The translations under genes were made by a program, and so were the position numbers. A DNA stretch of 6,611 nt from a virus. Taxonomy: Duplodnaviria > Heunggongvirae > Uroviricota > Caudoviricetes. The notes below the pieces were generated by a model, which was not told the origin of the DNA, searched no databases, and worked only from the letters and a program-made list of their open reading frames with translations. Shown here piece after piece: positions 1 through 6,611 of the stretch (positions are counted from its first letter, which is position 1; the number at the start of each line of letters is the position of its first letter). The DNA lies in IMG/VR virus record IMGVR_UViG_2744054854_000002. One strand, given 5' to 3'.

Positions 1-99
1 GTGGCGGCGGCACAGTTGGTGTGGCGGCCTCAGTCCGGAACAATTTGAAAACAAGAACCTCGCTTAGGCCTGTGTCCATATTACGTGGGTAGGATCATC

Positions 100-255
100 A
101 TGCGTGAATATCCAAATGGCGAAAAAACACACCTTACTGTAATGGCCGCAGGGTTTCCATCTCTGACCGGAGATCATAAAGTCATTTATGTAGCCGCGGA
201 TCGACATGTTACTTCAGAAGAAATTCTGGAAGCAGCAATAAGGCTCTTGAGTTGA
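100..255 (+). CDS. ynfN: Small 51-aa protein, YnfN-like (Qin-type prophage small protein)
   Basis: ATG at 100-102 with AGGA at 91-94 (5-nt spacer); 51 codons to TGA at 253-255; translation MREYPNGEKTHLTVMAAGFPSLTGDHKVIYVAADRHVTSEEILEAAIRLLS. Too short for the supplied ORF track. Identity rests on memory of K-12 YnfN and on the conserved neighbourhood (gnsB, ydfO, ynfO, Nu1 homolog). Confidence 0.5.
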   Translation: MREYPNGEKTHLTVMAAGFPSLTGDHKVIYVAADRHVTSEEILEAAIRLLS

Positions 256-348
256 TTTGATGCTATTGCATTGATAATTCAGGAAAATTCTCTTTGTCTG
301 TTTGTGTAAAATTTAGACTATCGTATGTTGATTATTGCGATGTTTCAT

Positions 349-395
349 CTTATCTTTTACACGTTTGCACCATATAATCGACTTACTGTGTAACT
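349..395 (+). promoter_or_regulatory. Candidate sigma70 promoter for the gnsB-like gene
   Basis: Perfect -10 hexamer TATAAT at 373-378; weak -35 candidate TTATCT at 350-355 (17-bp spacer); TTGCAC at 365-370 is an alternative -35 for a downstream -10. AT-rich intergenic region upstream of the ATG at 427. Sequence-pattern only. Confidence 0.3.
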
Positions 396-426
396 GGAAA
401 GTCATAACAGACTAAAAGAGGAAATG

Positions 427-599
427 ATGAATATTGAAAACTTAAAAACAAAAGCAGAAGCAGATATTTCTGAATATATAACAAAAAAATTATTGAACTT
501 AAGAAAAAGACCGGGAAAGAAGTTACCAGTATTCAGTTTACCGCACGGGAAAAAATGACGGGTCTTGAAAGCTATGATGTCAAGATTAATTTAATCTGA
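427..599 (+). pseudogene. gnsB: GnsB/GnsA-family gene with a frameshift in an A7 homopolymer
   Basis: ATG at 427 with SD-like AGAGGA at 417-422. Frame A reads MNIENLKTKAEADISEYITKK then runs to TGA at 556-558. The other frame, from the A-run at 483-489 onward, reads IIELKKKTGKEVTSIQFTAREKMTGLESYDVKINLI and ends at TGA 597-599. Together they give 57 residues colinear with GnsB as I recall it (MNIEELKKQAETEIADFIAQKIAELNKNTGKEVSEIRFTAREKMTGLESYDVKIKIM). Span is 173 nt; 174 (A8) would restore one frame. Confidence 0.6.
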
Positions 600-626
600 T
601 GTATTCAATAATAAAATTTATCCATA

Positions 627-657
627 AACCTCGTTTTTACGGGGTTTTGTTATATTT
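627..657 (+). terminator. Candidate rho-independent terminator downstream of the gnsB-like gene
   Basis: Stem AACCUCG (627-633) pairs with CGGGGUU (640-646) including one G-U pair; 6-nt loop UUUUUA; followed by UUUUGUUAUAUUU. Orientation-specific: the reverse strand is followed by an A-rich tract. Confidence 0.35.
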
Positions 658-713
658 GAATGGTTCCGAATATCTAAATCACAATTGTTGATGGTTTTTA
701 TTAAACCAATGCA

Positions 714-742
714 GTCCGGCTCAGGAGTGAGAGAAGCCGGAC
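714..742 (-). terminator. Possible weak terminator hairpin after the ydfO-like gene
   Basis: Perfect 8-bp inverted repeat GTCCGGCT (714-721) / AGCCGGAC (735-742) with a 13-nt loop, just 3' of the minus-strand stop at 751-753. No clean U-tract follows on the minus strand, so weak. Confidence 0.2.
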
Positions 743-750
743 GTTATGGT

Positions 751-1161
751 TTAGCGTGGTAAGATCTGTGTAGTTTTCTGGATGCTTTCAGTAAATAGTA
801 ATAAATTATCAAAGGTATAGTAATATCTTTTTTGTTCGTGGATATTTGTAACCCACCGAAAAACTCCTGCTTTAGCAAGGTTTCTTCTGTATTCCTGAAA
901 TGTGATCTCTCTGGATTTCAGCTTATTAGAGGTCGTTTCTATAAGATGCCTATCCTTTGAAAATTTGACAGACACAATGTTTTTTAGGCCCTTTAATAAC
1001 ACTGTATTATCATTTTTTAATACAATATGAACATTCTCTGTGGCTAAATAGTAAATGTAATGTGAGACATTGTGACGTTTTAGCTCAGAATAAAACCATT
1101 GATAGTTTAAATCGTTTCGAACTTTATCAAATATTTGTTTAAAAATGACTACCTGATCCAT
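751..1161 (-). CDS. ydfO: DUF1398-family prophage protein (YdfO/YbcV-like, often labelled putative envelope protein), 136 aa from the second ATG
   Basis: Track ORF 751..1176 (141 aa). The first ATG is preceded by C-rich sequence with no SD. The second ATG (1159-1161) has GGAAGG with a 7-nt spacer, giving [18 protein letters not shown]... Family assignment is from memory of K-12 YdfO/YbcV and from gene order. Confidence 0.7.
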
Positions 1162-1218
1162 AGATAAACCTTCCATGTGATATGAGGGGGCGTAGTCTGC
1201 ACGATTATCTAAATTTCT

Positions 1219-1452
1219 TCAATCTGGTCTGACCTGTTTTCTGAGCAATTCAGTAATGTCACTCTTTTCTTTGTTTGCTTCAGAAGAAACTCTTTTTTCT
1301 GAGCACAGTCTCCGGCGGCAGGCTTCAATGACCCAGGCTGAGAAATTCCCGGACCCTTTTTGCTCAAGAGCGATGTTAATTTGTTCAATCATTTGGTTAG
1401 GAAAGCGGATGTTGCGGGTTGTTGTTCTGCGGGTTCTGTTCTTCGTTGACAT
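1219..1452 (-). CDS. ynfO: 77-aa ribbon-helix-helix-like small protein (YnfO-like), immediately upstream of the ydfO-like gene on the same strand
   Basis: Track ORF 1219..1452. Basic N-terminus MSTKNRTRRTTTRNIRFP followed by NQMIEQINIALEQKG and SGNFSAWVIEACRRRL, matching the beta-strand/helix/G-turn/helix pattern of Arc/MetJ/CopG folds (visual inspection only). 42-bp gap to the ydfO start. No strong SD. Confidence 0.55.
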   Translation of the reverse strand: MSTKNRTRRTTTRNIRFPNQMIEQINIALEQKGSGNFSAWVIEACRRRLCSEKRVSSEANKEKSDITELLRKQVRPD

Positions 1453-1640
1453 GAGGTTGTCCCGTATTCAGTGTCGCTGATTTGTATTGTCTGAAGTTGT
1501 TTTTACGTTAAGTTGATGCAGATCAATTAATACGATATCTGCGTCATAATTGATTATTTGACGTGGTTTGATTGCGTAGATGCACGTTGTGACATGCAGA
1601 TGATAATTATTATCATTTTGCGGGTCCTTTCCGGCGATCC

Positions 1641-1674
1641 GACAGGTTACGGGGCGGCGACCTCGCGGGTTTTC
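1641..1674. other. cosN: lambda-type cohesive-end nicking site
   Basis: CGACAGGTTACG (lambda right-end terminus) abuts GGGCGGCGACCT (lambda left-end 12-nt cohesive end, 1652-1663) then CGCGGGTTTTCGCTATTTATGAAAA. Flanking 1453-1650 is colinear with the lambda right end as I recall it, with scattered substitutions; this includes the cosQ region. Confidence 0.85.
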
Positions 1675-1694
1675 GCTATTTATGAAAATTTTCC

Positions 1695-1820
1695 GGTTTA
1701 AGGCATTTCCGTTCTTCTTCGTCGTAACTTAATGTTTTTATTTAAAATACCCCCTGAAAAGAAAGGAAACGACAGGTGCTGAAAACGAGCTTTTGGGCCT
1801 CTGTCGTTTCCTTTCTCTGT
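1695..1820 (+). other. cosB: terminase small-subunit binding region (R3, A/T-rich IHF-type bend region, R2, R1)
   Basis: R-element-like motifs CATTTCCGTTCTTCTTC (1704-1720, R3), GAAAGGAAACGACAG (1761-1775, R2, inverted) and CTGTCGTTTCCTTTC (1801-1815, R1). R2 and R1 are a perfect 15-bp inverted repeat separated by 25 bp. A/T-rich stretch 1725-1750 lies between R3 and R2. Position between cosN and Nu1 matches lambda. Confidence 0.75.
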
Positions 1821-1840
1821 TTTTGGCCGTGGAATGAACA

Positions 1841-2360
1841 ATGGAAGTCAACAAAAAGCAGCTGGCTGACATTTTCGGTGCGAGTATCCGTACCATTCAG
1901 AACTGGCAGGAACAGGGAATGCCCGTTCTGCGAGGCGGTGGCAAGGGTAATGAGGTGCTTTATGACTCTGCCGCCGTTATAAGATGGTATGCCGAAAGGG
2001 ATGCTGAAATTGAGAACGAAAAGCTGCGCCGGGAAGTTGAAGAACTGCGGCAGGCCAGCGAGACAGATCTCCAGCCAGGGACTATTGAGTACGAACGCCA
2101 TCGACTTACGCGTGCGCAGGCCGACGCACAGGAGCTGAAAAATGCCAGAGACTCCGCTGAAGTGGTGGAAACCGCATTCTGTACTTTCGTGCTGTCGCGG
2201 ATCGCAGGTGAAATTGCCAGTATTCTCGACGGGATCCCCCTGTCGGTGCAGCGGCGTTTTCCGGAACTGGAAAACCGACATGTTGATTTCCTGAAACGGG
2301 ATATCATCAAAGCCATGAACAAAGCAGCCGCGCTGGATGAACTGATACCGGGGTTGCTGA

Positions 2361-2386
<26 letters not shown>
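1841..2386 (+). CDS. nu1: Terminase small subunit gpNu1 (181 aa)
   Basis: Track ORF 1841..2386; MEVNKKQLADIFGASIRTIQNWQEQGMPV... matches the N-terminal winged-HTH of lambda Nu1 as recalled. Near-identical to lambda along its length; 26-nt overlap with A as in lambda. Confidence 0.95.
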
Positions 2387-5118
<2,732 letters not shown>

Positions 5119-5284
5119 CGCCACGACGGCATCCACGAAGGCGACAGAGGCAGCTGGCAGTGCGACGGCAGCAGCTCAGAGCAAAAGTACGGCGGAATCT
5201 GCAGCAACGCGCGCTGAGACAGCGGCAAAACGGGCAGAGGATATTGCATCCGCCGTGGCGCTTGAGGATGCGAGCACGACGAAA

Positions 5285-5497
5285 AAGGGGATAGTACAGC
5301 TCAGCAGTGCGACCAACAGCACTTCCGAGTCACTGGCGGCAACGCCAAAAGCCGTTAAGGCCGCGTATGACCTGGCTAACGGGAAATACACCGCACAGGA
5401 TGCAACGACAGCACAGAAAGGGATAATCCAGCTAAGCAGCGCGACCAACAGCACGTCTGAAACGCTGGCGGCAACGCCAAAGGCAGTAAAAGCAGCC
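5285..5497 (+). repeat. Tandem in-frame duplication of the conserved tail-fiber motif (two ~81-bp copies, 132-bp period) inside stf
   Basis: Copy 1 at 5285-5365 encodes [27 protein letters not shown]; copy 2 at 5417-5497 encodes [27 protein letters not shown]. Nucleotide copies are similar but not identical. Lambda Stf, as I recall it, has one copy. Confidence 0.8.
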
Positions 5498-6611
5498 AAT
5501 GACAATGCTGAGAAACGTCTGCAGAAAGATCAGAACGGTGCGGATATCCCTGGCAAAGACACCTTTACGAAAAATATTGGTGCCTGCCGTGCCTTCGGTG
5601 GGTCAGTAAGCACAACAACAGGAAACTGGACGACTGCACAGTTTATCGAGTGGCTGGATTCTCAGGGAGCATTTAACCATCCATACTGGATGTGCAAGGG
5701 TTCCTGGTCTTATGGCAATAATAAAATCATTACTGATACTGGCTGCGGTAATATTCATCTCGCCGGAGCTGTCATTGAAGTAATGGGGATAAAGTCAGCG
5801 ATGACGATCCGCATTACCACACCGACCACCTCCACTGGTGGTGGAACAACTAACGCCCAGTTTACCTATATTAATCACGGAACAGATTATTCACCTGGCT
5901 GGCGAAGGGACTATAACTCCAGAAATAAGCCAACGGCATCAGAGATCGGGGCGTTACCGTCAGGTGGAACAGCAGTATCATCAGTTAATCTGTCTTCAAA
6001 AGGTCGGGTAACCGCGCTGACAGACAATACGCAGGGGGCAACAGGTCTTGAGTTATACGAGGTGTATAACAACGGATATCCAACAGCGTATGGAAATATC
6101 ATTCACCTGAAAGGGATGACAGCCGTTGGCGAAGGTGAGTTACTCATCGGCTGGAGTGGTACAAGCGGTGCTCATGCTCCGGCATTTATTCGTTCACGAC
6201 GGGATACGACCGACGCAAACTGGTCGCCGTGGGCGCAGCTTTACACCTCGGCTCATCCTCCTGCAGAGTTTTATCCAGTCGGTGCACCAATCCCGTGGCC
6301 ATCAGATACCGTTCCGTCTGGTTATGCCCTGATGCAGGGGCAGACTTTTGACAAATCTGCTTACCCGAAACTTGCAGCCGCTTATCCGTCAGGCGTGATC
6401 CCTGATATGCGTGGCTGGACGATTAAGGGCAAGCCCGCCAGTGATCGAGCCGTATTGTCTCAGGAACAGGACGGCATTAAATCACACACCCACAGCGCCA
6501 GCGTATCCAGTACGGATTTGGGGACGAAAACCACATCGTCGTTTGATTACGGCACTAAATCCACGAATAACACTGGTGCGCATACCCATAGTGTTAGCGG
6601 TACGGCTGCTT

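Follow-up and report, generated by a model that had tools for sequence, protein, structure and literature searches.

A side tail fiber gene of mosaic ancestry, 5'-truncated by a portal-to-stf deletion, in the cryptic prophage Qin of Escherichia coli 2018-10-1CC

Positions 5116-6611 of the 6,611-nt stretch of DNA analysed here (the window; IMG/VR record IMGVR_UViG_2744054854_000002) are best explained as the 3' part of a lambdoid Qin side tail fiber gene (stf), an old mosaic that in E. coli 2018-10-1CC is a dead relic, 5'-truncated by a deletion joining the portal gene to stf, and we place the probability of this explanation as a whole at about 0.9. The initial annotation had described a mosaic tail fiber with a duplicated motif, a divergent middle and an HxH-rich C-terminus, and although all protein strings that it quoted are contained in the translation, its reading was incomplete as it overlooked the truncation. 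Likewise, the start that it gave to the feature, 5285, was arbitrary, since in frame 2 the stf sequence begins at the junction. The features of the window are collected in Table 1.

Table 1. Features of the window, with positions counted from its first letter.
Feature	Position	Strand	Basis or remark
ydfO	751-1176	-	
ynfO	1219-1452	-	
nohA (lambda Nu1 homologue)	1841-2386		
terL (terminase large subunit)	2361-4286		
W (head-tail joining protein)	4283-4489		
Truncated portal gene (lambda B homologue)	4486-5118	+	ATCC 8739 comparison; 210 codons, then TAG at 5116-5118
Deletion junction, partial microhomology patch	5110-5117		Base-by-base three-way comparison with ATCC 8739 portal and stf DNA
5'-truncated side tail fiber gene ('stfQ-type'), frame 2	5116-6611	+	Codons 411-907 of the 1007-codon intact gene
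End of Ala/Ser-rich proximal coiled-coil shaft (lambda Stf-like)	5120-5269	+	Lambda similarity
Phage_fiber_2 repeat 1 (core motif 5288-5365)	5273-5395	+	Pfam PF03406, aa 52-92
Phage_fiber_2 repeat 2 (core motif 5420-5497)	5405-5527	+	Second Pfam stretch; contiguous with module A
Module A, globular shaft domain common to Mu S' (G(-) fiber), P1 Sv' and P2-type H	5525-5974	+	PDB 8JU3, homology
Module B, small beta-domain ('knob'), like the T4 gp34 C-terminus and R-pyocin fibers	5975-6259	+	AF2 model and fold comparison
gp37/lambda-type C-terminal region: collar and start of iron-binding needle (by homology)	6260-6611	+	PDB 2XGF, PF07484

The window locus is the cryptic prophage Qin at ydfJ in E. 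coli 2018-10-1CC, to whose sequence (NZ_AP021894.1) the window is 100% identical. Using megablast against all complete E. coli genomes, window positions 4400-6611 were matched at 100% over their full length in only two records, NZ_AP021894.1 (E. coli 2018-10-1CC) and a second record of the same strain lineage, while parts of this interval were matched by thousands of genomes. The prophage reads essD, ydfR, rrrQ, rzpQ, cspI, ynfQ/R, ynfN (split by IS3), gnsB, ydfO, ynfO and nohA, and from nohA onwards terL, W, portal', a "hypothetical protein", 'stf, tfaQ (frameshifted), pinQ, ydfK, ynfT and a truncated ydfJ. Qin is known to vary between 11 and 97 kb in size among strains (PMC6379469). At its own start, the window (positions 1-255; 3505-4855 of our locus sequence L001) lies inside or just past the IS3 element that interrupts ynfN, with the 3' part of ynfN at 96-254 and similarity to ATCC 8739 running from position 96 onward.

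E. coli ATCC 8739 carries the intact form of the same gene, encoding a 1007-aa Stf (WP_000279128.1), in a complete prophage at the same ydfJ site, with portal, protease, decoration protein, major capsid protein, tail genes, J, lom, Stf, tfaQ and pinQ. Window positions 96-5114, which hold nohA, terL, W and portal, are 98.8% identical to this prophage, and the portal similarity ends at 5114, at nucleotide 629 of the 1602 in the portal gene. Here portal nt ~629 is fused to stf nt ~1227, placing stf codon ~410 after portal codon 210, and position 5115 is a T in the window but a G in both parental sequences, which creates the TAG that terminates the portal frame. As stf lies in frame 2 and portal in frame 1, the fusion is out of frame. 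The DNA lost amounts to ~17.5 kb (about 2289712 to 2307185 in ATCC 8739 coordinates) and comprised the 3' part of portal, all head and tail genes, J and lom, both of which lie upstream of stf in ATCC 8739 and in phage mEp460, and stf codons 1 to ~409; a frameshifted tfaQ remains downstream. Across 20,395 records the portal-stf junction was present in two, both of one strain lineage (one assembly lineage). PGAP labels the upstream gene 'phage portal protein, incomplete, missing C-terminus', and it also calls a 66-aa 'hypothetical protein' at L001 9695-9895 (window 5094-5294) that crosses the junction in the third frame.

Downstream of the junction there were no mismatches to ATCC 8739 stf in 1496 nt (window 5116-6611). 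Compared with the Stf genes of ATCC 8739 and mEp460, the copy in the window has lost its first 410 codons and is joined to the truncated portal gene; it extends 302 nt past the window to a stop at window-equivalent position 6913. Counted from window position 5120, the protein encoded by the remnant has 597 aa; it equals aa 411-1007 of the intact ATCC 8739 Stf with 100% identity and matches PHROG 295 'tail fiber protein' (E = 1e-206). A Pfam search detected phage_tail_N (PF08400) in the intact ATCC 8739 Stf (E = 8e-72) but not in the window copy, where it went with the deleted 410 codons, while Phage_fiber_2 (twice) and Collar were detected in both; what the window contains is therefore only part of a Stf family member. 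On the upstream side of the junction divergence from ATCC 8739 amounted to 59 mismatches in 5020 nt, and this unevenness suggests that the two sides have separate recent histories, for example through recombinational replacement of one of them.

The remnant frame opens at 4898 and holds an ATG at 5072, and PGAP calls a 552-aa 'phage tail protein' CDS from the GTG at 5255 with no pseudogene flag, so that translation of an N-terminally truncated product is possible. It might accordingly be asked whether the remnant still functions as a shorter fiber, of 552 aa from the GTG or 613 aa from the ATG, for example by decorating a helper phage or tailocin or by blocking a receptor, and the uninterrupted frame up to the natural stop, the PGAP call and the complete identity to the intact allele speak for this. 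However, we regard it as improbable, because phage_tail_N and the 410 residues are missing, the prophage is without any tail genes, the cognate chaperone gene tfaQ is frameshifted, no Shine-Dalgarno-like sequence was seen ahead of GTG 5255, and the identity to ATCC 8739 is equally explained by a recent deletion. We therefore favour a dead relic, which is probably not expressed. The 66-aa 'hypothetical protein' and the GTG 5255 start look like annotation artefacts of the fusion, and the locus is properly labelled as a stfQ-type pseudogene and a portal gene, both truncated and fused to each other, and not as an intact "phage tail protein" with a "hypothetical protein".

The deletion in 2018-10-1CC is not the only one of its kind. 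Qin-type prophages display at least four different packaging- or portal-to-stf junctions at the ydfJ locus, namely nohA'-'stfQ in K-12, IS3 plus terL'-'stf in A30, a terL::stf fusion annotated as a single 601-aa 'terminase' CDS in CREC-629, and the portal'-'stf junction of the window, with a fifth, similar junction (terL'-'stf) in E24377A at another locus, bio/ybhB. All five of these prophages retain tfa, and those at ydfJ also retain pinQ. Deletions in Qin-type prophages are thus repeated and independent, with the 3' part of stf, tfa and pinQ kept. In K-12, where prophage and locus are the same, residues 3-320 of StfQ (b1547, Qin) are 84% identical in amino acids to aa 297-597 of the remnant, and the stfQ DNA is 96% identical to window stf over 6009-6624 and 94% over 6722-6913, although the tip segment differs; the independent nohA'-stf deletion there falls at window-equivalent 6009 and so left K-12 with neither repeat, no module A and a module B that lacks its start. 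It is conceivable, but in our estimate a long shot, that selection keeps the stf 3'-tfa-pinQ module, either as a host-carried reservoir of fiber cassettes for superinfecting lambdoid phages or because a truncated gp37-like tip is expressed and modulates the accessibility of OmpC or LPS.

The initial annotation proposed looking downstream of the window for tfa and a Pin-type invertase, and both tfaQ and pinQ are present. Relative to ATCC 8739, tfaQ (L001 11514-12060, equivalent to window 6913-7459) has lost 29 bp between direct repeats of 12 bp, and this loss frameshifts the fiber chaperone gene. On the opposite strand, 98 bp past tfaQ, pinQ (L001 12158-12748) is intact, with Resolvase (E = 7e-36) and HTH_7 domains. 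An intact serine invertase beside fiber genes, together with the homology of modules A and B to parts of the invertible Sv' of P1 and Mu, could point to an active Pin-type inversion switch that alternates fiber C-termini, as in Mu G, P1 C and e14 P. We consider this very unlikely, since no cix/gix-like crossover site (TAAACCNNGGTTTA, allowing up to 2 mismatches) was found near stf, tfa or pinQ, L001 9600-13400 contained no inverted repeats of more than 18 nt, the locus has a single tfa and no second, inverted Sv'/U' set, and the identical arrangement is found in ATCC 8739, mEp460 and K-12. The single tfa, the 98-bp tfa-pin gap and the lack of crossover sites and inverted repeats instead indicate that pinQ encodes an orphan invertase and that there is no segment for it to invert; in Mu and P1, by contrast, the modules lie within the invertible segment.

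Turning from the relic to the ancestry of its sequence, we compared it with lambda Stf, reconstructed across the PaPa frameshift. Using blastn, lambda stf matched the window at 5126-5360 (81%; lambda nt 922-1156), 5397-5490 (the repeat) and 6281-6559 (86%), with more distal matches at 6557-6630 (73%), 6734-6795 (77%) and 6764-6913 (85%), but with no match to 5491-6280; likewise, remnant aa 127-384 were left unmatched by blastp. This agrees with the initial annotation, which had called the Ala-rich N side and the C-terminal region lambda Stf-like and the middle unlike lambda. The blastp alignment covers lambda residues 306-429, which are 63% identical to the shaft-end part, and 530-774 only, indicating that lambda has a different stretch (PLDSPALTG...) between them. 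The Ur-lambda Stf (orf-401 plus orf-314) shares with the window the shaft end, the motif, the collar and the HxH needle, at 63-67% amino-acid and 81-86% nucleotide identity in these parts, and tfa follows stf in both, but it has one copy of the motif against two in the window, eight HxH against seven, and no pin. The counterpart of region 5120-5269 in Ur-lambda gpStf is the proximal coiled coil; the architecture of this fiber and its binding to OmpC have been described (PMC12617516).

The motif said by the initial annotation to be duplicated is indeed present twice, its copies spaced 132 nt (44 aa) apart, and PF03406 matches the remnant at both copies (E = 1e-37, 127.9 bits against a gathering cut-off of 22). 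Over 37 aligned codons the copies share 15 identical codons and differ at 13 by synonymous and at 9 by residue-changing substitutions, and such divergence of both kinds means that the copies are old. Repeat 1 is lambda-like through ...AATPKAVK and P2-H-like afterwards (AAYDLANG), and P2-H-type sequence runs from within this copy via the second into module A. In P2-type H protein four tandem 44-aa units are followed by a linker and module A, as after repeat 2 here, and repeat 2 and module A are contiguous both in P2-type H and in Mu S (PDB 5YVQ, aligned at aa 80-158). The simplest reading is that a lambda-type shaft was joined to a P2-H-type array within the conserved motif, which would account for its doubling. 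A fresh tandem duplication of the motif was considered and rejected in view of the synonymous divergence and the P2-H-type repeat array; hence, of the tandem duplication originally claimed, the two adjacent copies stand but a local duplication event does not, as the unit is repeated four times in P2-type H.

The middle of the fiber consists of two modules. Module A matches residues 178-334 of Mu S' in PDB 8JU3 (domain E = 1.4e-69), a structure of Mu gp52 (PMC11821841), and is 66% identical to P1 Sv' in amino acids and 77% in nucleotides. The first 143 aa of the middle are ~80% identical to P2-type H. When 50,697 phage records were searched with tblastn, the middle was found in lambdoid phages (mEp460, PhiR26_1 and others) at 97.6-98.8% amino-acid identity, in P1 Sv' at 74% and in P7 Sv at 71%, with distant copies in Yersinia, Salmonella, Vibrio and Aeromonas phages. 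Mu S', P1 Sv' and P2-type H belong to contractile-tail phages and have other N-termini and distal tips. Module B shares homology with the first part of P1 Sv/Sv' and aligns with P1 Sv' 47-153, with the two modules in the opposite order in P1 Sv'. Searches of the PDB by sequence with module B gave no match up to E = 10, and a single-sequence AF2 run on the entire middle (272 aa) reached a pLDDT of 30 and no usable model. The protein search for modelling returned mostly short partial proteins, and partials, including frameshifted fragments, were removed beforehand; fold comparison with the resulting alignment-based AF2 model gave matches of modest strength to gp34 and pyocin fibers, so that module B, as modelled, resembles domains of T4 gp34 and pyocin fibers.

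Modules A and B fill the interval that in lambda is taken by the hinge and distal coiled coil, which makes them elements of the shaft and not of the receptor tip. The middle thus belongs to the distal shaft and is flanked by the hinge motif on one side and by the gp37-like collar, needle and tip on the other. This bears on the domain shuffling that the initial annotation placed in the receptor-recognition part of the fiber: shuffling relative to lambda Stf is borne out by the modules shared with Mu S', P1 Sv' and P2 H, but its location is not, since the modules are shaft knobs and the swap affecting the tip is found at ~6600-6727 instead.

The C-terminal part is of the T4 gp37 type. Pfam Collar (PF07484) matches 6281-6424 (E = 3e-12, 46.7 bits against a cut-off of 24), and the HxH-rich C-terminus noted initially is real, with two HxH inside the window (6485-6493 and 6581-6589) and five more beyond its end. 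Using phmmer, each of the seven was aligned to a counterpart among the seven HxH of PDB 2XGF, the T4 gp37 tip (E = 1.4e-86, aa 384-597), where these motifs coordinate iron ions along the needle. The collar, the needle and the C-terminal ...NIAFNYIVRLA are shared with T4 gp37, but the stretch lying exactly between the third and fourth HxH, which in 2XGF forms the head (tip) domain, is unrelated, and the remainder of gp37 is not homologous. Near-identical alleles (mEp460 and K-12 StfQ) lose DNA similarity to the window only at ~6600-6727, in the head domain. The mEp460 Stf (VUF53340.1), from a phage that shares tfaQ, pinQ and the ydfJ site, is 97.4% identical in DNA over 5120-6600 and 90.9% in amino acids, and deviates in this same segment. 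Judged by these alignments, the head at and past the window end is probably the true specificity hot-spot. By homology to the solved structures, the fiber would form a trimer, with iron bound by the seven HxH and the receptor contacted by the head, and by analogy to lambda and T4 this allele may bind OmpC or LPS.

Within E. coli, the parts of the remnant differ in how widely they occur. Among 5426 complete genomes, and requiring at least 80% coverage per segment, the N-side flank (5120-5524) was present in 2808, the middle (5525-6259) in 800 and the C-side flank (6260-6611) in 3674. Matches to the middle of at least 99% identity were found in 1075 records, a number that includes partial coverage (K-12 laboratory derivatives, query positions 485-735 only). 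Widespread flanks around a rarer middle indicate that the middle is one of several alternative cassettes, and itself a common one.

Taken in order, ancient recombination among lambdoid, P2-, Mu/P1- and T4-type fiber genes at short conserved motifs most likely produced the patchwork stf. The intact 1007-aa product, as in ATCC 8739 and phage mEp460, comprises, on its N side, phage_tail_N, a long Ala/Ser coiled-coil shaft and two Phage_fiber_2 hinge motifs, and, on its C side, modules A and B, a T4 gp37-type collar, a seven-HxH needle and a small variable head; going by its homologues Ur-lambda Stf and T4 gp37, it would be a trimer with iron on the HxH and contact between head and receptor, and with Tfa as its folding chaperone. 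An illegitimate deletion of ~17.5 kb at microhomology then left a relic without the attachment domain and without head and tail genes, with tfaQ frameshifted.

Horizontal swapping of fiber parts between lambda, T4, P2, P1, Mu and p15B has long been on record. De Paepe et al. (2014; PMC3945230) describe the horizontal transfer of stf segments as 'well documented', with Montag 1989, Haggard-Ljungquist 1992, Sandmeier 1992 and Sandmeier 1994 among the works cited there for fiber exchange, and report recombination of Ur-lambda with K-12 Qin and Rac via stf-tfa at ~2e-6. Engineered lambda-P2 Stf chimeras are functional (PMC11338833), which is consistent with modularity. The only activity plausibly left to the relic would be as a donor of fiber sequence in recombination with superinfecting lambdoid phages. 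The allele, its modules, the solved structures of relatives and the mosaic principle, established since 1989-1994, are all already known and nothing here is new, so that the case matters little beyond correct annotation. None-the-less, the module map (two hinges, Mu S' knob, gp34-like knob, gp37 collar, needle, variable head) may be of use in engineering chimeric lambda Stf and in studying the donation of fiber sequences by cryptic prophages.

The middle had also been described as more AT-rich, and this is real but modest and significant against the upstream part only. Its GC content was 0.495 (5525-6259), compared with 0.580 upstream (5120-5524; p = 0.007) and 0.533 downstream (6260-6610; p = 0.27, not significant). 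Applying pooled codon usage to the amino-acid composition predicts a GC of 0.581 upstream and 0.540 in the middle; about half of the upstream difference is therefore expected from composition alone, as the upstream part is Ala-rich. GC3 contrasts were marginal (p = 0.054 upstream and p = 0.51 downstream). Composition is thus weak evidence for mosaicism, and we rejected the GC drop as a decisive argument, with half of it explained by composition and the downstream contrast not significant; it is homology that carries the case.

A recent origin of mosaic and duplication within this genome, giving a new chimeric fiber, as adjacent motif copies and a GC drop across the middle might suggest, can be dismissed almost entirely given the identical allele in ATCC 8739 and many strains, the near-identical middle in isolated phages, the codon differences between the motif copies, a GC difference that is small and partly due to amino-acid composition, and the full-length colinear matches, which refute it. 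The initial annotation had set its mosaic against colinear alignment to a single known Stf of uniform composition, and this is largely what was found, over the full length, in ATCC 8739 Stf (100% in amino acids) and mEp460 (~97% in nucleotides). Elsewhere in the window, positions 200-1300, which span gnsB, ydfO and ynfO, are strongly AT-rich (GC 0.28-0.41), a contrast that far exceeds that within the fiber gene and follows a pattern typical of 'moron' genes beside cos/nohA.
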